Under the pieces are notes generated by a model. That model searched no databases, was not told where the DNA came from, and saw nothing but the letters and a program-made list of their open reading frames with translations. Of a DNA stretch of 64,000 bases, positions 7,785 through 16,767 are shown piece after piece. Positions within the stretch are counted from its first letter, which is position 1. Each line of letters begins with the position of its first letter. This stretch comes from an uncultured Gemmatimonadales bacterium (GTDB lineage Bacteria > Gemmatimonadota > Gemmatimonadetes > Gemmatimonadales > GWC2-71-9): the NCBI GenBank assembly GCA_963795085.1, contig CAWCFX010000006.1, positions 128,001 through 192,000 on the forward strand. Direction: 5' to 3'. The translations under genes were made by a program, and so were the position numbers.

Positions 7785-8255
7785 GTGGGCAAGGCCAGCG
7801 CCGGTGTCCTGCTCTTCCGAAGACGCGGCCCCGACCTCGAAGTCCTGCTGGTCCACCCGGGCGGTCCCTTCTGGGCCAGGAAAGACGCGGGCGCCTGGTC
7901 GATACCCAAGGGTGTGATCGAGGGGGAAGAGGATCCCGAACAGGCGGCGTTCCGGGAACTGAGGGAAGAAACCGGGTGGGACCTCGCGGGCGATCCGATC
8001 CGCCTGGAGCCGGTCCGGCAGGCCGGGGGCAAAGTGGTTCACGCCTGGGGACTGGAGACCGATGTGGATTCCTCGAGCTGCCGCAGCAACACCTTTCAGA
8101 TGGAGTGGCCGCCCCGTTCGGGCCGGCAGCAGGAGTTCCCGGAAGTGGACCGGGCCGGCTGGTTCTCGCTCAGTGAGGCCCGGGCCAGGATTCTGCCCGG
8201 CCAGATCCCGTTGCTCGACGACCTCGCCACCAGGCTCAGACATCCCCCCAAGTGA
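7785..8255 (+). CDS. NUDIX hydrolase (predicted NTP pyrophosphohydrolase)
   Basis: VLLVHPGGPFWARKD..WSIPKG and Nudix box AAFRELREETG; GTG start at 7785. Confidence 0.92.
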   Translation: MGKASAGVLLFRRRGPDLEVLLVHPGGPFWARKDAGAWSIPKGVIEGEEDPEQAAFRELREETGWDLAGDPIRLEPVRQAGGKVVHAWGLETDVDSSSCRSNTFQMEWPPRSGRQQEFPEVDRAGWFSLSEARARILPGQIPLLDDLATRLRHPPK

Positions 8256-8268
8256 GCCGCCCACCGGC

Positions 8269-9348
8269 TCAGGACCGCGGCGCCCCCTTCTTGCTGCTCT
8301 CCGAGCGAGCCTTGATAATCGCGTCCACCAGCGGGGCCTGGTCGAACCGAACCGGGTCAGTGGCCGGGAGGCCGGTGTCCCGGGCTGCCTTCTCGCAGGC
8401 CGCCCGGGCTTCCTCCTCGGTCATGTCAAAAGTGTTGAGGCAGATCCCGATCACCCGCGTGGGATGCACCGCGGAGCCGATGGCTTCGTACCAGCGGATG
8501 TAGTCGGTCAGGGGCGGGATACGGAGCCACGAGGCCTCCCGGTAATCTCCGATATACTCCCGGCTGGCCTGGTGGCAGAGGATGAGCGCGTCGGGACAGG
8601 AGCCATGCAGGAGCCCAACCGTGACGGCCGAGTAGCCGGGATGGTTGATACTCCCCTGTCCTTCGACCAGCACGATATCCGCGTTCTTGGCGCCTTCCAG
8701 GACCAGCATCTCCGCTGCCCCGTTCACGAAGTCGGAGACCACGGCATCCACCGCGATGCCCCAGCCTTCGATCATGATCCCGGTCTGGCCGGTCGCCACG
8801 AACCGGGTCCGGATGCCGCGCCGGTTCAGGTCGCTGGCCAACTGGAGCTGGGCGGTCATCTTGCCCACGTTGCAGTCGGTTCCCACCGCCGTCACCACGA
8901 ACGCGTCCACTTCTTTCGCCGCGCCGGAGGCCACCGGGATCTCCGCCGGCGGCTTTCGCAGGTCAAAGAGCCGGGTCCCCTTCTGCTCGGCCTTGGCCAC
9001 CAGCATGGGATCGTCGGTGAGGAATGTGTGCAGGCCGCTCCAGAGGTCGCACCCGGCGGCGATCGCTTCCGCCAGCCAGCCCCGCCACTTCTCGGGCAGT
9101 TTCCCGCCCGCCGGGGCGATGCCGATCAGGACCGCGGTCGGCTTCAGGGCCAGCCCTTCGGCCATGGTGGCGACCACCGGGATGGTGCCGCCGAATCCCA
9201 GGACCTGCTGGACGGTCTTGCCCGCCTGCAAGTGATCCACCACGGCCAGCGTCTGCTCGGGCCGGTAGCGGATGACCGAGTTGGCGGTCTTGGAGGTCAG
9301 CGGGCCGAAGTCGCCGTCGGCGAGAATGACGAAGCGGGGCAAGGACAT
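8269..9348 (-). CDS. DUF1611 family protein (DgcN-like, P-loop)
   Basis: KTANSVIRY, VGTDCNVGKMT, ATGQTGI and VEGQGSINHPGYS; the true ATG is at 9348 and the longer ORF reads through a repeat. Confidence 0.9.
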   Translation of the reverse strand: MSLPRFVILADGDFGPLTSKTANSVIRYRPEQTLAVVDHLQAGKTVQQVLGFGGTIPVVATMAEGLALKPTAVLIGIAPAGGKLPEKWRGWLAEAIAAGCDLWSGLHTFLTDDPMLVAKAEQKGTRLFDLRKPPAEIPVASGAAKEVDAFVVTAVGTDCNVGKMTAQLQLASDLNRRGIRTRFVATGQTGIMIEGWGIAVDAVVSDFVNGAAEMLVLEGAKNADIVLVEGQGSINHPGYSAVTVGLLHGSCPDALILCHQASREYIGDYREASWLRIPPLTDYIRWYEAIGSAVHPTRVIGICLNTFDMTEEEARAACEKAARDTGLPATDPVRFDQAPLVDAIIKARSESSKKGAPRS

Positions 9349-9540
9349 TGAGGGAATTAGGGAATTGAGGGAATGTTGGAATTGAGGGAATGTTGGAATT
9401 GAGGGAATGTTGGAATTGAGGGAATGTTGGAATTTGAGGGAAATGTTGGAATTGAGGGAATGTTGGAATTGAGTTGAGCCTCTCAAATTCCACAATTCCC
9501 TCAATTCCCCCATTCCTTCAATTCCCTAATTCCCTCAATT
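9349..9540. repeat. AT-rich palindromic tandem-repeat element, copy 1
   Basis: Six 17-bp units GGAATTGAGGGAATGTT (9361-9464, one with 2 extra bases), core GGAATTGAGTTGAGCCTCTCAAATTCCACAATT, then inverted AATTCCCTC-type units. Confidence 0.95.
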
Positions 9541-10302
9541 CTAATCTTTCCCATCCTCCAGCAGTTCGGCATCGTGAATGGTTTCACCGCCCTTGCCGAG
9601 CTGCCGGGCCTTTTCGCCGCTGCCGGGCTTGAGGACGCCCATCTTCATTTTCAGTTCGATGAGTTGCTGGTCCGAGCTGCCCTTGTACTCCAGCGACTCG
9701 AACTGGCGGGCCAGGGCGTCGCCGGAGAACTCCTCCTGGAGTTCCGCGGCCGCGATGGCCTTGCGTTCGTTGGCTTCGATCTTCTCCGCCATGCGCTCGA
9801 ACCCTTCGAAGGCGCTCTTGTCGGAGAGCCCCGACATGGTCTCCTGGATGCGCTGCTGGGCTTCCGCCCGGCGGGCCCGGGCGACCAGGATGTTCTTCTT
9901 GCGCTTGGCCTCTTCAATCTTGTCGTTCAGCTGGCGAAGACTGTTCTTGAGGTTCTCGGTCTCCGCCTTGTGCTTGAGCCAGGTCTCATGCAGCGTCTGG
10001 GCGCCCTGCAGTGACTCGTTGTAGCGGACCAGCGCCTGCTTGGCCAGGTCGTCCCGGCCCTCCTGGACGGCAAGCATGGCGCGGCGCTCCCAGTCTTCCG
10101 CCTGTTTCTTGAGCTGCTCGGCGTCAGCCTGGAGCTTTTTCTCGTCGGCGATGGAGGAGGCAACCTGCTGCTTCGCCTTGGCCAGCTGGCCTTTCATATC
10201 GATGATCAGCTGGTTCAGCATCTTCTCGGGATTTTCCGCCCGGGAGATCAGGTCGTTGATGTTCGACCGGAGCATCGTGGACAAACGGTCAAAAATCCCC
10301 AT
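9541..10302 (-). CDS. pspA: Phage shock protein A (PspA/IM30, ESCRT-III-like)
   Basis: MGIFDRLSTMLRSNINDLISRAENPEKML, GRDDLAKQAL and FERMAEKI; coiled coil. Confidence 0.96.
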   Translation of the reverse strand: MGIFDRLSTMLRSNINDLISRAENPEKMLNQLIIDMKGQLAKAKQQVASSIADEKKLQADAEQLKKQAEDWERRAMLAVQEGRDDLAKQALVRYNESLQGAQTLHETWLKHKAETENLKNSLRQLNDKIEEAKRKKNILVARARRAEAQQRIQETMSGLSDKSAFEGFERMAEKIEANERKAIAAAELQEEFSGDALARQFESLEYKGSSDQQLIELKMKMGVLKPGSGEKARQLGKGGETIHDAELLEDGKD

Positions 10303-10304
10303 TG

Positions 10305-10700
10305 CTACTTCTCCCGGTAGGGCGCGAGGGCGCCGAGATGTGAGGCAAGCGCCAGGGTGAGGGAATCGAAGCTGGCTTCAAACTCGCTGTAGTCCAGATC
10401 TTCCAGTTCCAGGGTGTCGGTCAGGACGACATGGTCGCCTTCCAGTCCGTACGACCCGTGGACCAGGTCGCGGGCATTCAGTTCGAGCAGCTGGCGGAAC
10501 AGTTCCCCGCGGCGCGGCTCGGCCGCCGGGAGCTCCATGACGCGCACCCGCAGGATGACCACGGGAGGGGCGCAATGCACCACCACCTCGGCGTCGTGGG
10601 GCGTACGGGCAATCCAGAGGCCGGGTTCCACCTCGGTGGATTCGACCGTCCCGCTGTCAAGCCGGCCCAGGAAGGACTCAATGTCATCTCGGGTCACCAT
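10305..10700 (-). CDS. CesT/YbjN-like chaperone-fold protein
   Basis: Small acidic protein with ELFRQLLELNA..LVHGSYGL and ELEDLDYSEF; GGGGAA RBS; directly upstream of pspA. Confidence 0.8.
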   Translation of the reverse strand: MVTRDDIESFLGRLDSGTVESTEVEPGLWIARTPHDAEVVVHCAPPVVILRVRVMELPAAEPRRGELFRQLLELNARDLVHGSYGLEGDHVVLTDTLELEDLDYSEFEASFDSLTLALASHLGALAPYREK

Positions 10701-10904
10701 GTCATGTTCCCCTTTTCCAGGCCTCACGGCCCCCTGATCTGTCCCGTGGATGCTGCAATGTAATTCGTCCCGCCGGGCGCGCGCAGCGGCGGATCAGCCT
10801 CCCTCGAGTGAGGGCCGGATATCCTCCCTCGGCCCCGCCAGCACCCGCTCGGCGGCGTCCACCCGTTCTTCCAGTTCCTTGACCCGTTGCTGGTCCGCCT
10901 CCCC

Positions 10905-11246
10905 CTACCCGGGCAGACGCTCGGTATTCTGCCGGCTCAGCAGCCGCTCGGTAAAATCCACCCGCTCCTCCAACTCCACGAGGCGGTCCTGCAACCCCTC
11001 GAGGTATGCCACTCGCTCCTCGACTTCGGCGACCCGATCGGGGTCCCGTGCGTGCTCCCTGGCGAGGCGGCGGAGGCCGCGTTCTCGGCGGACGCCGAGG
11101 AGGAGAACCGACCCGGCGGTAATCATCGGGTACAGCGCCGCCGGCCCGTCCGTGACTCCGACGAATCCAAGCACGCAGCCGGTTACGACCAGGTGAATGA
11201 CCAGGTCCACCGGATCGAAACCCATCAGCCGCTTAAAGGCCGTCAA
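10905..11246 (-). CDS. PspB-like small membrane protein, class A (2 TM + coiled coil), array member 10
   Basis: LMGFDPVDLVIH N-terminus; ELEERVDFTERLL motif; TTGA overlap. Confidence 0.85.
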   Translation of the reverse strand: MTAFKRLMGFDPVDLVIHLVVTGCVLGFVGVTDGPAALYPMITAGSVLLLGVRRERGLRRLAREHARDPDRVAEVEERVAYLEGLQDRLVELEERVDFTERLLSRQNTERLPG

Positions 11247-11527
11247 TGTGCGTCTCTCTGAACCATGGGAACGGACTTCTCCCGGGCCAACAGCCGCTCG
11301 GCAAAGTCCAGTCGCTCTTCTACCTCCTCCAGGCGGGCCTCCGCCTGCTCCGCTCCCAGCAGCCGCCGTTCGAGATCCTCCACCCGCTGGACCAGGTCGG
11401 GATCGGCCCGGCCGGTGCCTTCGAGCCGGCGGCCCAGGGCCCGTCCGATCGGCCCCCGGAGGACCAGGACGACCGAACCCGCCACGATGAGCATCGCGAG
11501 GAGCGGACCAGCGACTTCAGGATTCAC
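11243..11527 (-). CDS. PspB-like small membrane protein, class B (1 TM + coiled coil), member 9
   Basis: TM, GPIGRALGRRLEG, EVEERLDFAERLL. Confidence 0.85.
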   Translation of the reverse strand: MNPEVAGPLLAMLIVAGSVVLVLRGPIGRALGRRLEGTGRADPDLVQRVEDLERRLLGAEQAEARLEEVEERLDFAERLLAREKSVPMVQRDAH

Positions 11528-11811
11528 CGGCTGGCTCCCTGGTCAAGTCCGCCCGCATCGTCCCTGCCCTGGACCAGCAGCCGTTCCGAGAAATCCATGC
11601 GTTCCTCCACCTCGTTCACCCGCGCGTGCAACTGCTCCAACTCGGCGATGCGACTCCGCAGGTCTTCCAGTTCCCGAATGGTGTCGGGGGTGACGGTCTT
11701 TCCCTCCAACCGGCGTTGAAATACCCGAACCCCCACAAAACCGGCATAGAAGAGGAGGGGAAATCCCATCATCATGATGACCGCTATCGCGACCTTGAGG
11801 AGGTCATCCAT
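11524..11811 (-). CDS. PspB-like small membrane protein, divergent class B, member 8
   Basis: TM, FQRRLEG, EVEERMDFSERLL. Confidence 0.85.
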   Translation of the reverse strand: MDDLLKVAIAVIMMMGFPLLFYAGFVGVRVFQRRLEGKTVTPDTIRELEDLRSRIAELEQLHARVNEVEERMDFSERLLVQGRDDAGGLDQGASR

Positions 11812-12095
11812 CAGCGCAGTTGCTCCGGTTCCCGCTGGGCCAGCATCCGCTCAGTGAAGTCGAGCCGCTCCTCCAGTTCGGCCAGCCGGGCCGCCGGAAC
11901 CCCCTCGGCCGGGGTGCGCTGGAGCAGCGCCTCCAGCTCGGCCACCCGGTTCTCCAGGTCCACCATCCGCCGGGGTGCGCCGCCCGCTTTCGATTCGATC
12001 CAGCGGCCAACCGCCCTGGCAATGGGCCCGAAGAAGATGCCCACCATCGTGAGGCCGATAGCGCCGTACATGGCAAATTCACCGAGCTCGCTCAT
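11811..12095 (-). CDS. PspB-like small membrane protein, class B, member 7
   Basis: TM, GPIARAVGRWIES, ELEERLDFTERML. Confidence 0.85.
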   Translation of the reverse strand: MSELGEFAMYGAIGLTMVGIFFGPIARAVGRWIESKAGGAPRRMVDLENRVAELEALLQRTPAEGVPAARLAELEERLDFTERMLAQREPEQLR

Positions 12096-12445
12096 CGGGG
12101 CTCCTCGATTCGGTCGGGGCGCCCCTGGGCCAGCAGGCGCTCGGCGAAATCCACCCGTTCTTCCAGTTCATAGATGCGCTGCTGAGCCGCTTCCAGGTCG
12201 GCAACCCGGTGCTCCAGGTCCAGGTTGTACTCCCCGGATGGCGCGGCCGGCGATCCCAGTGCTCCCCGCTTCCGGGCCCAGTGCCGGCGCCATGCCAGGA
12301 CCCCCAGGGACCCCGCGAACACGGCCCCGATCATCATGTCTTCGTGTTGCCGATTGATACTGGAGAGGACCACGGCAATGCACATGGTGATCCCGGCCTG
12401 AATCAGGAAATCCACTCCGTCAATGCCCAGCCAACGTTGGATCAT
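12092..12445 (-). CDS. PspB-like small membrane protein, class A, member 6
   Basis: ATG at 12445 (ATGA overlap): MIQRWLGIDGVDFLIQ, 2 TM, ELEERVDFAERLL. Confidence 0.85.
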   Translation of the reverse strand: MIQRWLGIDGVDFLIQAGITMCIAVVLSSINRQHEDMMIGAVFAGSLGVLAWRRHWARKRGALGSPAAPSGEYNLDLEHRVADLEAAQQRIYELEERVDFAERLLAQGRPDRIEEPR

Positions 12446-12762
12446 CGCGGCGCCCTCGTGGCTTCGTCCCGGGCCAGCACCCGCTCCGTGAAATCCAGGC
12501 GCTCCTCGAGTTCGACGATGCGACCCTGCCGGTCCTCGAGCCTGCTGACACGGTCGTGAAGGACCGTCTGCTCCATCCCGGAGGACGGTCTTCCCCTCGA
12601 TCTGATGCGGCGGGCAAAGGCCCGCCCCACCGGCCAGCACAGCACCAGCACTCCGGCCATGACGGACAGCACTATCAGCGCCGCCACTGCGGGCGGCAGG
12701 TGGGGGCCGGGAAAGAGCCAGATCACCGGATCCGGCGGTACGGGCGCCTGGAGAGTGATCAT
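12442..12762 (-). CDS. PspB-like small membrane protein, class B with Pro-rich N-terminus, member 5
   Basis: TM, WPVGRAFARRIRS, ELEERLDFTERVL. Confidence 0.85.
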   Translation of the reverse strand: MITLQAPVPPDPVIWLFPGPHLPPAVAALIVLSVMAGVLVLCWPVGRAFARRIRSRGRPSSGMEQTVLHDRVSRLEDRQGRIVELEERLDFTERVLARDEATRAPR

Positions 12763-13115
12763 CTTCCCTCCTCTAACTTCTCCGCCTCGCGAACCCGGGT
12801 GAGCAGGCGCTCGGCAAAGTCCAGCCGCTCCTCGAGCTCCAGGATCCGCTGCTGTCCTGCCTCCAGCTCCGCGATCCGGTCGTCAAGTTCCTCGACGCGT
12901 TCGGCGGGGAGGGCGACGGTCTCCTCCGCGGCCAGGGCCCGGGTACGCCGCCAGGCCAGGAGCGCCAGCGAGGAGGCGAACACGCCGGACATCAGCATGT
13001 CTTCAACCCGTCCCTCGCTGGCCTCGGAGAGCAGGGCGGCGACCCCCAGGGTCACCAGCACATGCACGGCAACGTCAAAGAGATCCATCCCGAACAGTTT
13101 CCAGCGGGTCTTCAC
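12759..13115 (-). CDS. PspB-like small membrane protein, class A, member 4
   Basis: LFGMDLFDVAVH, 2 TM, ELEERLDFAERLL. Confidence 0.85.
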   Translation of the reverse strand: MKTRWKLFGMDLFDVAVHVLVTLGVAALLSEASEGRVEDMLMSGVFASSLALLAWRRTRALAAEETVALPAERVEELDDRIAELEAGQQRILELEERLDFAERLLTRVREAEKLEEGR

Positions 13116-13480
13116 GGGCCGATCTCCCGGGGTTCCGCCTTGCGGGCCAGTAGCCGCTCGGCAAAGTCCATTCGTTCTTCCAATTCATTCATTCGGCCCT
13201 GGTGTGCCTCGAGGTCAGCCACCCGGGTTCGCAGGTGGTCGAGTTCCTCCAGTACCGCCGGGTCCTGCCCTCTGCCCTCGATGCGCCGGGCGATCGCCCG
13301 AACCAGGGGCCAGAGAATTACCACCGCGCCGGCGACGACACCCAGAACAATGAGCACGAAGACGGGCGCCGGCAGCACTTCCCATGGCGCGGGTGTTCCA
13401 TGGGGGAAGGGAGGAAACTGCTGGACCAGGACCTGGTCCGGCGACGGGGGCGCGGGAGGCGCCACTTGCAGGAGGGTCAT
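13112..13480 (-). CDS. PspB-like small membrane protein, class B with Pro-rich N-terminus, member 3
   Basis: TM, WPLVRAIARRIEG, ELEERMDFAERLL. Confidence 0.85.
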   Translation of the reverse strand: MTLLQVAPPAPPSPDQVLVQQFPPFPHGTPAPWEVLPAPVFVLIVLGVVAGAVVILWPLVRAIARRIEGRGQDPAVLEELDHLRTRVADLEAHQGRMNELEERMDFAERLLARKAEPREIGP

Positions 13481-13728
13481 GATCCCTTTCCGATCTCGCC
13501 CGGCTCGCGGCCCTGGGCCAGTAGCCGTTCAGCGAAGTCCATTCGTTCGTGCAGGTCGCTCAATTCTCGACGCAATTGGTCCAGTTCTTCGTAGATCACC
13601 GGGTCGGGGACGGGGGCGGCGTGCTTCCCCCGCAAACGGTCGGCGACGGCTCGCCCGACCGGACTGAAGGACAGCGCGGTCAGCGTGCCGCCGCCGAAAA
13701 TGAGCAAGATCGCAAGGATGTCTTCCAT
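13477..13728 (-). CDS. PspB-like small membrane protein, class B, member 2
   Basis: TM, SPVGRAVADRLRG, DLHERMDFAERLL. Confidence 0.85.
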   Translation of the reverse strand: MEDILAILLIFGGGTLTALSFSPVGRAVADRLRGKHAAPVPDPVIYEELDQLRRELSDLHERMDFAERLLAQGREPGEIGKGS

Positions 13729-13732
13729 TCCT

Positions 13733-14020
13733 TTACTCTCCGGAGAGCGGGGTGGCCGGCCGAGGGCGGCTCAGCATCCGCTCGGCAAAATCAAGGCGCT
13801 CCTGGGCTTCTCCCAGCTGGCGCTGCAGCTCATCAACCTGTTCCCGGAGAAAGCCCAGCTCGGCGCGGAAATCCTCCTCGGCCTCGCCGCTGGTGCCCTG
13901 GATCCTGCGGCCCAGCGCGATTCCGACCGGGCTGTGCATGATGCGCACAACGCCGAAGATGATGCCCCCGGTAATCAGGACCCCGGTGATCATCCCGAAG
14001 ATCGGAATCAGTTCTCCCAT
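13733..14020 (-). CDS. PspB-like small membrane protein, class B, member 1
   Basis: ATG at 14020 (MGELIPIFG); TM, SPVGIALGRRIQG, EAQERLDFAERML. Confidence 0.85.
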   Translation of the reverse strand: MGELIPIFGMITGVLITGGIIFGVVRIMHSPVGIALGRRIQGTSGEAEEDFRAELGFLREQVDELQRQLGEAQERLDFAERMLSRPRPATPLSGE

Positions 14021-14065
14021 GTCGGTTCCGTTCAGTGGTGCGGGTGCAGCCCATCCACGAGGGTG

Positions 14066-14092
14066 TACGGGATGGTGTTCCACAATGTTTCA
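14066..14092 (-). promoter_or_regulatory. ECF sigma factor promoter (sigmaW-like)
   Basis: Minus strand TGAAAC-N17-CGTA, ending 45 bp upstream of the first array gene. Confidence 0.65.
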
Positions 14093-14146
14093 AGTCGGAA
14101 CACCTCAAGGGCGGCCACCGATGCCAAGGTGTTGGCCGCCAGCATG

Positions 14147-14365
14147 TTAGGACACGATTTCAACCGACTGGATCGCCGCCAGCGAAACGGCGATCTCAGT
14201 TTCTTCGGCTCCGGCCGGTCGGAGGAATACCTCATGCGCCGCCATCTCGGGGTCAACGCTGGTGGGCACGCCGACGACTTGAAGGTTTCCGGTTGTCCGG
14301 ATGCGCACGGCCTGCTCATGATCGCCGGCGTATCCCAGTAGAGATACGATCTGGTCGTATTCCAT
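14147..14365 (-). CDS. Small hypothetical protein (possible Sm/SH3-like beta fold)
   Basis: 72-aa ORF with GGGGGA RBS; beta-strand pattern ending VSLAAIQSVEIVS. Confidence 0.6.
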   Translation of the reverse strand: MEYDQIVSLLGYAGDHEQAVRIRTTGNLQVVGVPTSVDPEMAAHEVFLRPAGAEETEIAVSLAAIQSVEIVS

Positions 14366-14446
14366 GGAATCCCCCACGGAAAAAGGGTTGCCTGCGCTTT
14401 CGGCAGAGGATGATCCTTTAACATGCGGCAATGACTCCCCGAACGC

Positions 14447-14475
14447 AAAACCGCCCCCGGGGTCTCCGGAGGCGG
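14447..14475 (-). terminator. Intrinsic terminator after the DPP-IV gene
   Basis: GC hairpin CCGCCTCCGG-agacc-CCGGGGGCGG followed by TTTT on the minus strand. Confidence 0.7.
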
Positions 14476-14493
14476 CCTGGGCCGGCCGTGCCG

Positions 14494-16767
14494 TCAGGTG
14501 GCCGGCCGGGGCTTGGGGTTCATGAGGTGGTCGTTCAGATAGTTGGTAATGAGGGTGAACAGGTGCAGCCGGGTATTGCCCCCGAAGATCCCGTGGTTGC
14601 GGTTGGGATACTCCATCAGGGCGAATTGCTTGTTGGCGGTAACCAGCGAGTTCACCAGCGCCTGGCTGTTCTGGAAGTGCACGTTATCATCGCCGGACCC
14701 GTGCACCAGGAGCAGGTCTCCCCGAAGCTGGTTCACGTAGCTCAGGGGCGAACCCTTGTCGTATCCCTCCCGGTTTTCCTGGGGGAGACCGTTATACCGC
14801 TCGGTGTAGATGTTATCGTAGTATTTCCAGTGCGTTACCGGCGCGACGGCCACGGCGGTCCGGTACACTTCGCCGTGCTGGAAGAGCGTGTTCAGGCTCA
14901 TGAATCCGCCATAGCTCCAGCCCCAGATGCCCATCCGGGTGGAATCCACGTAGGGCCACCGCCCGATGGCCCGGGCCGCAGCGGCCTGGTCCCGGGTTTC
15001 GACCACGCCCATCTGGCCGTAGATGATCTTCCGCCAATCCCGACCCCGCGCGCCGGTCCCCCGGTTATCGACGCTGGCCACGAGGTACCCCTGCTGGGTC
15101 AGGAGCAGAAACCAGAGATACTGGCTGCCCCCCCAGGAGTCGAGCACCGTCTGGGACCCCGGTCCCCCGTACACGAAGAAGAGAATGGGATACTTCCGCG
15201 CCGGGTCGAACCCCGGGGGCTTCATGATCCAGCCGTTGAGGGCAACACCGTCCTCCACCGGCACCTGGAAGAACTCCCGCGGTCCCTCCTTGAGCACCGC
15301 GACCCGTGACCGCAGCCGGGCGTTCTCGACCACGGTGCGCGCCACCGCGTGGGTCGGCAACTGGACCAGCGCGGTGACCGGGGGAACCCCCATGCGGGAG
15401 TGGGTGTGGAAGGCCCATTGAAAATTGGGCGCGACGTTGTAGCTGTTGGAGCCAGGCTGATCCGCCGGGGTCAACCGCTCCGGGCGTCCCCGGCCGTCCA
15501 GCCTGGCGCGGAAGAGGTATCGCTGGGCCGGGTTGTCGGGTGAGGCGACAAAGTAGACAAAGCCGCCCTTTTCATCGATGCCTTGCACGCTGATGACATC
15601 GTATGCGCCGGGCGTCACCAGTTTCACGTCACGTCCGTCCCGGGATACCACGTAAACATGGTTCCAGCCATCGCGTTCGCTGACCCAGGTAAACCGCTGG
15701 CCCCCGTCCAGCCATTCCATGTCGTCGACCACTTCGACCCAGGCCTGGTCCTTTTCCGTGAGAATGGTCCGTACCTGCCCGGTGGCGGCGTCCCCCAGCA
15801 TGAGGTCGAGGGTGTTCTGCAGCCGGTTGAGCCGCTGGACATGGACCTCCCGGGAATTGGCGGCCCAGTCCATCCGGGCGGGATAGTTGTTCCGCGGGTC
15901 GCCCGGCAGCGCCAGCCACTGGGTACCGCCTCCCTTGATGCTGACGATTCCGATCCGGGCCGCCGAGTTGCTCTCGCCGGCCTTGGGATACTGGACCGGC
16001 ACCACGTTGGCGTAAAGCGAGTCGGTGTCGTTGATGAGATTGAAATCGCGGACGCTGTCCGCGTTCAGTTGCCAGTAGGCGATAGACTGGCCGTCCGGGC
16101 TCCAGCGCCAGCCATCCTGGAGACCCAGCTCTTCTTCATAGACCCAGTCGAAGGTGCCGTTGATGATGGTCCGCGAGCCGTTATCGGTGAGCTGGGTGAT
16201 CCGGCCGTCGGTCAGGTCCTCGACGTAGAGATTGTTCTCCCGGACATAGGCGACTTTCCGGCCATCCGGGGAAAACTTCGCGAACATCAGCGTGCTGGGG
16301 CGGGCTGCCGGGCCACCAAGCTTCCGAAGCTGCCAGCTGGTGCGGTTGAGGATCCAGTAATCGCCCCGGGTGTTGGTCCGCCACACCGGTCGCGAGTTGG
16401 TGTAGATCAACACCGCACCCAGGTCGGGAGACCAGCGGTAGTTCTCGACCGCCAGGGGTACCGAGTCGCCTCCGGGCTGGAATCGGGCTGCCGGGATCAA
16501 CACCTCGCGGGCGCCCGAGCGGGTCTCATAGCGCACCAGGTCCCGGCCCCGGCCTTCGGCGGGCCGCTCCAGCGTCGTGTAGGCCGCCCCGTCGTTCATC
16601 CACCGAATGGGACCGAACGTTTCGGACTGAAAATCCTGGGAGGCATGGACCCGGTGCAGGGTCAACAGGCTGGAATCCGCAGCCGGCGTCTGGGCATCAG
16701 CGGCGGATCCGGCGAGAACGCCCAGGGCAACGAGCAAGACAGCGCGGGGACGGAAAGACACGGGCAT
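14494..16767 (-). CDS. Dipeptidyl peptidase IV (S9B)
   Basis: Signal peptide, DWVYEEE, GWSYGG nucleophile and HGSGDDNVH. Confidence 0.95.
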   Translation of the reverse strand: MPVSFRPRAVLLVALGVLAGSAADAQTPAADSSLLTLHRVHASQDFQSETFGPIRWMNDGAAYTTLERPAEGRGRDLVRYETRSGAREVLIPAARFQPGGDSVPLAVENYRWSPDLGAVLIYTNSRPVWRTNTRGDYWILNRTSWQLRKLGGPAARPSTLMFAKFSPDGRKVAYVRENNLYVEDLTDGRITQLTDNGSRTIINGTFDWVYEEELGLQDGWRWSPDGQSIAYWQLNADSVRDFNLINDTDSLYANVVPVQYPKAGESNSAARIGIVSIKGGGTQWLALPGDPRNNYPARMDWAANSREVHVQRLNRLQNTLDLMLGDAATGQVRTILTEKDQAWVEVVDDMEWLDGGQRFTWVSERDGWNHVYVVSRDGRDVKLVTPGAYDVISVQGIDEKGGFVYFVASPDNPAQRYLFRARLDGRGRPERLTPADQPGSNSYNVAPNFQWAFHTHSRMGVPPVTALVQLPTHAVARTVVENARLRSRVAVLKEGPREFFQVPVEDGVALNGWIMKPPGFDPARKYPILFFVYGGPGSQTVLDSWGGSQYLWFLLLTQQGYLVASVDNRGTGARGRDWRKIIYGQMGVVETRDQAAAARAIGRWPYVDSTRMGIWGWSYGGFMSLNTLFQHGEVYRTAVAVAPVTHWKYYDNIYTERYNGLPQENREGYDKGSPLSYVNQLRGDLLLVHGSGDDNVHFQNSQALVNSLVTANKQFALMEYPNRNHGIFGGNTRLHLFTLITNYLNDHLMNPKPRPAT

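Follow-up and report, generated by a model that had tools for sequence, protein, structure and literature searches.

What are ten small membrane proteins of one family doing directly ahead of a pspA gene? The question is raised by an operon in a 64,000 nt stretch of DNA from an uncultured Gemmatimonadales bacterium (contig CAWCFX010000006.1 of assembly GCA_963795085.1, positions 128,001 to 192,000), the whole of which is referred to here as the window. In transcription order, its minus strand carries a gene of 72 amino acids (aa), ten genes of 83–122 aa, a 177 nt spacer, a 140 aa gene and a 253 aa gene; the last two encode a CesT/Tir-like protein and PspA, and the array of ten paralogues spans 10905–14083 (−). 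PspA/IM30/Vipp1 proteins are bacterial relatives of ESCRT-III, and how they reach damaged membrane has been worked out in only a few model organisms, each of which has small membrane partners of its own. From gene context and topology, we put the probability at about 0.5 that the ten proteins are lineage-specific, membrane-anchored partners of PspA that function like PspB/PspC, LiaI or PspM.

A conserved family linked to pspA

An initial annotation of this DNA had described ten consecutive minus-strand genes of 83–122 aa, nine of them overlapping stop-to-start, and the list of open reading frames (ORFs) bears this out. Among the small genes, eight of the nine junctions are overlaps, of 4 nt in seven cases and 1 nt in one, which chain nine of the ten paralogues; paralogues 1 and 2 are separated by a 4 nt gap. 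The description of divergent N-termini and a conserved motif near the C-terminus was also correct: ER[LMV]DF[AST]ER[LMV]L occurs in 10/10 paralogues, whose alignment shows no variation at the E, R, D, F, E, R and L positions of the motif. A family hidden Markov model (HMM), made from an alignment of 144 sequences (143 database representatives clustered at 50% identity plus one window paralogue), matches all ten with E-values from 1.9e-14 to 4.7e-35, and the array is indeed a bank of diversified paralogues of one family, as had been proposed. None of the ten exceeded the cut-off of any Pfam or NCBIfam family.

The gene that closes the operon, pspA (9541..10302, −; 253 aa), gives a full-length match to PF04012 (E 1.3e-46; 159.5 bits, cut-off 33.9; profile positions 1–216 of 220) and is 58–93% identical to 24 aligned relatives. 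It scores below the equivalog cut-off of TIGR02977 (136.7 vs 242.95). Directly before it lies a gene for a CesT/Tir-like chaperone fold (10305..10727, −; 140 aa), which matches PF22550 (CesT_Tir_1) at E 6.4e-26 (91.3 bits, cut-off 27; profile positions 6–128 of 131). A CesT/YbjN-like gene followed by pspA had been described here; the CesT_Tir_1 and PspA assignments stand, both over their cut-offs, but the YbjN model (20 bits vs 22) falls short of its cut-off, as does the CesT model.

An exhaustive profile search of 1.84 billion representatives recovered 3015 proteins (50% identity clusters) at E ≤ 0.001 and 743 at E ≤ 1e-10, and a word-indexed search with a ten-sequence profile scored 8000 candidates, of which 7037 had E ≤ 0.001. 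Among the 120 matches listed, none carries a Pfam domain, all organism names given are Gemmatimonadota or Gemmatimonadales, and about 17 bear the Joint Genome Institute (JGI) label PilO or PilN. The strict motif is present in 123 of the best 148 representatives. All 30 clusters returned from the ESM Atlas are annotated as 'hypothetical protein', have no Pfam domain in common, and come most often from Gemmatimonadota. This is a large and real family that has no Pfam family, and its named members so far belong to Gemmatimonadota alone.

Within the phylum, 251 genomes were scanned at E ≤ 1e-6 with 19 candidates scored per genome, so that match counts are lower bounds (the tallies include the unpublished genomes G076 and G196). 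Family matches were found in every genome of group f1 (113/113, with at least 2–18 matches each), group f4 (4/4) and group f5 (1/1), in 2/3 of group f3, 23/37 of group f7, 2/16 of group f6 and 1/3 of group f8; the matches in group f2 (18/53) are single and weak, and groups f9–f12 gave none in 20 genomes.

If the small proteins are partners of PspA, their genes might be expected to stay beside pspA in related genomes. Copy number and linkage were accordingly examined, as the initial annotation had advised. Of the 24 genomes of the family-level groups f1 and f3 among 30 scanned relatives, 22 yielded pspA. In 20 of them (one being the unpublished G018) family matches adjoin pspA on its contig, and in the remaining two pspA occupies a short contig of its own. 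Twenty-four pspA loci were then scored with the 144-sequence HMM, 18 from f1 and f3 and six from f2, also a family-level group. In 18/18 of the f1 and f3 loci, family genes (1–11 copies) lie on the same strand directly upstream of pspA or of a cesT-pspA pair. The copies per locus number 11, 9, 8, 5, 5, 9, 6, 4, 5, 8, 4, 5, 3, 4, 5, 3, 1 and 2, although several loci reach a contig end and some counts, at least the 3 and 2, may be incomplete. Twelve of the 18 loci have a cesT-like gene separating the array from pspA. In the other six the array abuts pspA without any cesT-like gene, which makes PspA the constant neighbour. A genome of group f5 carries a single divergent copy about 420 nt upstream of pspA, and the linkage, shared among related soil bacteria, holds across three family-level groups.

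The arrays are also related in their composition. When 106 array proteins were clustered, the subtype of paralogue 2 (MEDILAI..LIFGG) was found in 13 of 14 f1 arrays, and the f3 arrays have a conserved subtype set of their own. With subtypes denoted by letters, three arrays from the genus of the window are partly collinear (F G D H I J K L C M; F G N D J H O P C M Q; F G U R K H C M Q). Shared subtypes in partly collinear order indicate that the ten paralogues did not arise by recent duplication of a single gene; they have persisted for long, each conserved in its own right, and members have been gained and lost. Within the genus, orthologues of the paralogues are 40–67% identical, compared with 89–93% for PspA. 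The ratio of non-synonymous to synonymous substitution (dN/dS) was 0.11–0.50 in all 14 orthologue pairs for which it could be computed, rough values since dS is saturated, and as judged from these sequences the orthologues are under purifying selection. Genes, family, architecture, operon layout and conserved linkage are, in summary, established by observation.

Architecture and proposed role

Three conserved parts can be recognised in the 144-member alignment: a hydrophobic segment, usually ending in W/G-P; a basic juxtamembrane stretch with a second conserved motif, P-[LIV]-x-R-A-[LIW]-A-R-R-[IL]-E-G; and, beyond a short Gly/Asp/Pro linker, a heptad-spaced C-terminal stretch. In the last, hydrophobic residues recur at a/d spacing, one core position holds a conserved Gln, and there is a near-invariant run, E-L-E-E-R-[LV]-D-F-[AT]-E-R-[LM]-L, after which L-P often comes close to the C-terminus. 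Charged residues along this helix (E, E, E, R, D, E, R) are invariant. An AlphaFold2 (AF2) model of paralogue 3 (mean predicted local distance difference test score, pLDDT, 88.7) places helices at residues 38–70, the transmembrane helix extending to 70, and at 74–114.

One or two transmembrane helices had been assigned to each protein, and a crude hydropathy scan agrees, giving 1–2 hydrophobic segments in every paralogue. Three paralogues have a second such segment, although for two of them the scan detected the first only. Basic residues follow, rather than precede, the last detected hydrophobic segment in 8/10 paralogues, which places the C-terminal helix in the cytoplasm, where PspA is. Hydropathy, flanking charges and the AF2 model together confirm the earlier statement that the proteins have the architecture of PspB, an N-terminal anchor and a cytoplasmic C-terminal helix. 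Most of the ten continue into a basic juxtamembrane helix, and every one has a cytoplasmic helix of roughly 40 residues with heptad spacing, ending in the invariant ELEER-x-DF-x-ERLL.

The anchors are of several recurring subtypes: a short single transmembrane segment, a Pro-rich N-terminal tail plus a transmembrane segment, a two-segment hairpin starting W-L-G-[IM]-D, and an IP-x-FGM type. In the window (all genes on the minus strand), paralogue 1 (13733..14083; 116 aa from a GTG, with an alternative ATG at 14020; family HMM E 3.8e-17) has an IPIFGMITG-type anchor, and paralogue 2 (13477..13728; 83 aa) is the MEDILAI..LIFGG subtype, the one most widely kept in arrays. Paralogue 3 (13112..13480; 122 aa; E 4.7e-35) has a Pro-rich N-terminal tail, one transmembrane segment and a long C-terminal helix, and paralogue 5 (12442..12762; 106 aa) likewise has a Pro-rich N-terminus and one transmembrane segment. 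The two-hydrophobic-segment subtype is represented by paralogue 4 (12759..13115; 118 aa), paralogue 6 (12092..12445; 117 aa) and paralogue 10 (10905..11246; 113 aa); the start of paralogue 6 was taken as the ATG at MIQRW, since the longer ORF to 12640 would overlap the neighbouring gene. Paralogue 7 (11811..12095; 94 aa) has an insertion in its helix, and paralogues 8 (11524..11811; 95 aa) and 9 (11243..11527; 94 aa) complete the set. Directly after the TAG codon that ends paralogue 10, and in its frame, lies a motif-only remnant (QQRVKELEERVDAAERVLAG; 10821..10901, −), matched by the family profile at E 1.9e-5 and 5.9e-8 in two profile searches; it reads ..ELEERVDAAERVL.., the F of the motif being replaced by A. 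Among database proteins, P0006 has a doubled motif and P0001 is a fusion of two modules.

A Foldseek search of the Protein Data Bank (PDB) with the paralogue model gave no match at E ≤ 10, and sequence-profile matches of the family to PDB entries were limited to leucine zippers and other coiled coils (E ≥ 0.0098). The heptad pattern with its polar core residue, together with these coiled-coil-only matches, suggests that the helices pair with each other, while the invariant charged residues suggest a specific partner. From these features and the gene context, we infer binding to PspA, oligomerisation and any sensing role. The ten paralogues would be translated from one operon together with the CesT-like protein and PspA, and would be anchored in the inner membrane with the conserved cytoplasmic helix facing the compartment in which PspA acts. 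The shared helix could join the paralogues into mixed coiled-coil assemblies or present one common docking face, and the differing anchors could place, or sense, different membrane states. PspA would thereby be held at, or recruited to, the membrane, a task that PspB/PspC, LiaI and PspM are thought to perform in other phyla. The locus suggests that PspA has here an unusually large set of membrane partners.

A bolder form of this proposal is offered tentatively. The array may be a combinatorial bank of up to eleven anchors that nucleate or tether an ESCRT-III-like PspA polymer at different lesions or lipid environments through the shared helix, which would then be a new PspA-docking motif reused on TM2-domain and PadR-linked anchors. 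Such multiplicity of PspA adaptors, if true, would be undescribed for any Psp, Lia or Vipp1 system. If the helix docks PspA, it would provide a new, short and easily testable targeting motif, and the arrays would be a natural experiment in coupling one effector to many membrane anchors. Without docking, these are still widespread, conserved small membrane proteins, annotated as hypothetical or mislabelled PilO. Either way, a family with no Pfam entry (3015 clusters at 50% identity) occurs, in a poorly studied phylum, in arrays of up to eleven genes directly before pspA.

Counter-evidence and other readings

Several results weigh against the small proteins being partners of PspA, and they bear in different ways on three other readings. 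The first comes from group f2, where 6/6 loci keep pspA without an array (scored with the 144-sequence HMM), so PspA does not depend on these proteins. In four of the six, cesT-pspA stands alone; one of these four (L101) has serine dehydratase genes and a 181 aa membrane protein upstream.

The second is that the family occurs away from pspA. Six additional, weaker copies are present elsewhere in the genome of the window, one of them between bshC and murJ. Another of the six, of 88 aa and ending ..ELENRLDFAERLL, starts 2 bp after a PadR regulator gene (G000:C6:62079-62900; loci L107 and L114), and this PadR dyad is kept in 10 of 30 loci with PadR orthologues, in several genera. A third of these copies is the C-terminal end, ..ELAERVDFTERLL, of a TM2-domain protein (PF05154, E 1.3e-19; G000:C2:460664-461083; L111:3165-3584, −), so the module is portable between membrane anchors. 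Three complete f7 genomes and one f2 genome likewise have copies far from pspA. Since the module is found in contexts without pspA, the helix may serve oligomerisation or interaction more generally.

On that alternative, the helix is a general coiled-coil oligomerisation module of small Gemmatimonadota membrane proteins and the array specifies a mixed membrane complex with its own function (a scaffold, a channel-like or a signalling assembly). The paralogues would then not recruit PspA but be served by it as clients, and co-expression of PspA and the CesT-like protein would shield the membrane from the complex or aid its assembly. The copies without pspA (the PadR dyad, the TM2-domain protein, and the unlinked f7 and f2 genes), the leucine-zipper and coiled-coil matches in the PDB, and the natural two-module fusion P0001 are all consistent with it. 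So is the interpretation of CesT/Tir partners of PspA as assembly chaperones in passages of Ravi et al. 2024, mSystems (PMC11237479). Longer fusion proteins carrying the C-terminal module were looked for among 128 candidates, none of which matched at E ≤ 0.001, which is weak evidence. A plain zipper, however, would not require the invariant charged residues that run along the helix, and linkage to pspA spans three family-level groups. We consider this reading possible, though rather doubtful.

The PadR dyad also bears on a second alternative, in which the paralogues are membrane-bound regulators whose helix sequesters PspA, the CesT-like protein or a transcription factor and releases it on stress, with the PadR-linked copy as prototype. 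The dyad's retention in 10/30 loci is in its favour, as are the repeated operator-like sites of the PadR promoters, in which a TTGAC box is followed by two or three CGATATATCG-type palindromes. Pairs of PadR and a membrane protein are, moreover, a known theme around Psp systems in the passages of Ravi et al. that treat them (PMC11237479). In the genome of the window, however, the palindrome (with up to one mismatch) is found solely at the promoter of the padR gene itself, and control of the array by PadR was rejected, nothing comparable being present at the array. A shared 9-mer (CCGTACACC) was likewise rejected as a common site, as it occurs at about chance level and is not kept in orthologous promoters. 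Sequestration also leaves the need for ten copies unaccounted for, and this explanation appears unlikely.

The third result is that no profile links the family to a known PspA partner above chance, and this concerns PspB above all, since the initial annotation had called the proteins PspB-like. Six of the ten window paralogues match TIGR02976 at E 0.035–0.66, with 10.3–14.4 bits against a cut-off of 51.7. Over the diverse members, 54/144 match this model at E ≤ 1, and 7/143 representatives match at E ≤ 0.001 over profile positions of about 5–72 of 75, the best reaching 28.9 bits (E 1.1e-6). Together with the same architecture and size, and with the linkage to pspA, these matches would be consistent with very distant, true PspB homologues that have multiplied. 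But the 51.7-bit cut-off is reached by nothing in the window or the 143 representatives, nor in any of 101 f1 genomes (0/101; best 26.6 bits), and the N-terminal transmembrane-plus-helix models GspM (63/144) and CcmI (49/144) match about as often. The Pfam PspB model (PF06667) matches 8/144 members (best E 0.0034) and none of the ten window paralogues at E ≤ 1. The hhalign probability for the family against PspB was 1.6% (8 columns) or 8.9% (13 columns; E 0.0037), and the register differed by one heptad from that of hmmscan; the test is weak because the PspB alignment was shallow and enterobacterial (12 sequences; effective number of sequences, Neff, 1.36). A search of the PDB with E. coli PspB returned no chain at E ≤ 1. 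The genes, furthermore, lie upstream and not downstream of pspA, and no PspC was found: the genome of the window (93% complete) has no PspC match (PF04024) at E ≤ 1 and nothing above 17 bits for PspB, so that no classical membrane partner of PspA was found in it. Homology to PspB was therefore not borne out, and the family is not filed under PspB because the sequence similarity is below significance; a very distant relationship is improbable. A further candidate, that the helix mimics a helix of PspA, was rejected, as hhalign gave a probability of 0.28% for the family against a PspA alignment.

Other genes of the locus and known systems

The proposal that the small proteins are PspA partners can be set against the rest of the locus and against systems already described. 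The first gene of the operon (14147..14365, −; 72 aa) is found upstream of 8/19 arrays. Its product has no Pfam match at E ≤ 1, but the AF2 model (pLDDT 87.9; one helix and five strands) is Sm/Hfq-like, its best matches in a Foldseek search of the PDB being Hfq hexamer subunits (5szd_G, E 8.6e-4, TM-score 0.73–0.75, 18% identity). The genome of the window has no match to the Hfq family PF17209, and the Sm-like gene is single-copy. This gene, the in-frame remnant and the second juxtamembrane motif were absent from the initial annotation. Three terminator-like hairpins were found in the region, compared with 3.9 expected in shuffled sequence, and a scan of 9200–14700 for sigma-70-like promoters returned no site. 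Among sequencing runs, no RNA run was listed as containing the sequence, and five DNA runs had small word shares of 0.05–0.13. PADLOC defence models gave no match at E ≤ 0.01 to the eleven small proteins or the CesT-like protein, and coiled-coil noise alone for PspA.

The operon is flanked by genes for a DPP IV/S9 peptidase (14494–16767, −) and a DUF1611 P-loop protein (8269–9339, −), both of which border it in several relatives too. Further out are genes for a NUDIX hydrolase (7830–8255, +) and a putative glycolipid-binding protein (PF06475; 7214–7783, +). Two sets of 17 bp tandem repeats, at 9347–9473 (ATTGAGGGAATGTTGGA x7.4, 93% matches) and 9486–9541 (AATTCCCCAATTCCCTC x3.3), occupy the spacer that separates the pspA stop from the DUF1611 gene, whose longest ORF would run through them. 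Elsewhere in the genome, genes for an AAA+ ATPase and an OmpA-domain protein enclose a second, divergent PspA-like gene (PF04012, 36.5 bits; G000:C4:292451-296806, L113); associations of PspA homologues with AAA+ ATPases and OmpA domains are mentioned in passages of Ravi et al. 2024 (PMC11237479).

Among described contexts, the CesT/Tir-PspA dyads of Ravi et al. 2024 (PMC11237479), as given in passages of that paper, resemble the locus in having a CesT-fold gene directly before pspA, the arrangement that stands alone in most of the f2 loci. They differ in the further partners named there (band-7/flotillin, AAA+ ATPase, YqiJ/YuaF, spermine synthase, ATP-grasp and others), none of which is in the window operon. 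A tandem array of small transmembrane-plus-helix proteins is not among the contexts in those main-text passages, although the supplementary tables and web app may list such arrays, and the string 'gemmatimon' occurs 0 times in the main text. A search of the full-text literature found nothing joining Gemmatimonadota with phage shock, and the papers found to mention both pspA and Gemmatimonadetes look unrelated, judging by title and abstract.

The SHOCT and SHOCT-like modules in passages of Ravi et al. 2024 are similar in being short helical C-terminal modules on varied membrane anchors near Psp genes. They have another motif and form a two-helix unit, whereas one long helix is predicted here (AF2), and a SHOCT model matched none of the ten paralogues at E ≤ 1. 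GspM, PilO and PilN combine a transmembrane segment and coiled coil with a C-terminal periplasmic domain, in contrast to the window proteins, which end after the helix; the GspM matches span about positions 4–80 of 180 and reach at most 24.7 bits against a cut-off of 60.

PspC, LiaI/LiaF and mycobacterial PspM, small membrane proteins whose genes adjoin pspA or liaH, are considered to anchor PspA/LiaH or to regulate it. The window proteins are like them in being small, membrane-bound and encoded beside pspA; to our knowledge, no ten-gene tandem array is known for these systems. Two-segment paralogues match PspM weakly (E 0.0086 in the window, 2.5e-5 in 1/143 representatives), none over the cut-off. 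PspB of the E. coli pspABC genes is likewise a small inner-membrane protein that shares an operon with pspA and has an N-terminal transmembrane segment and a C-terminal helix in the cytoplasm, and its similarity to the window paralogues is weak, collinear and sub-threshold. The two differ in gene order, the pspA-pspB-pspC operon having its small genes downstream of pspA and the window having them upstream; in number, PspB operons having one or two copies and this one ten; and in sequence, the window family having its own invariant ELEERxDFxERLL run and its own juxtamembrane motif, RA-x-ARR-x-EG.

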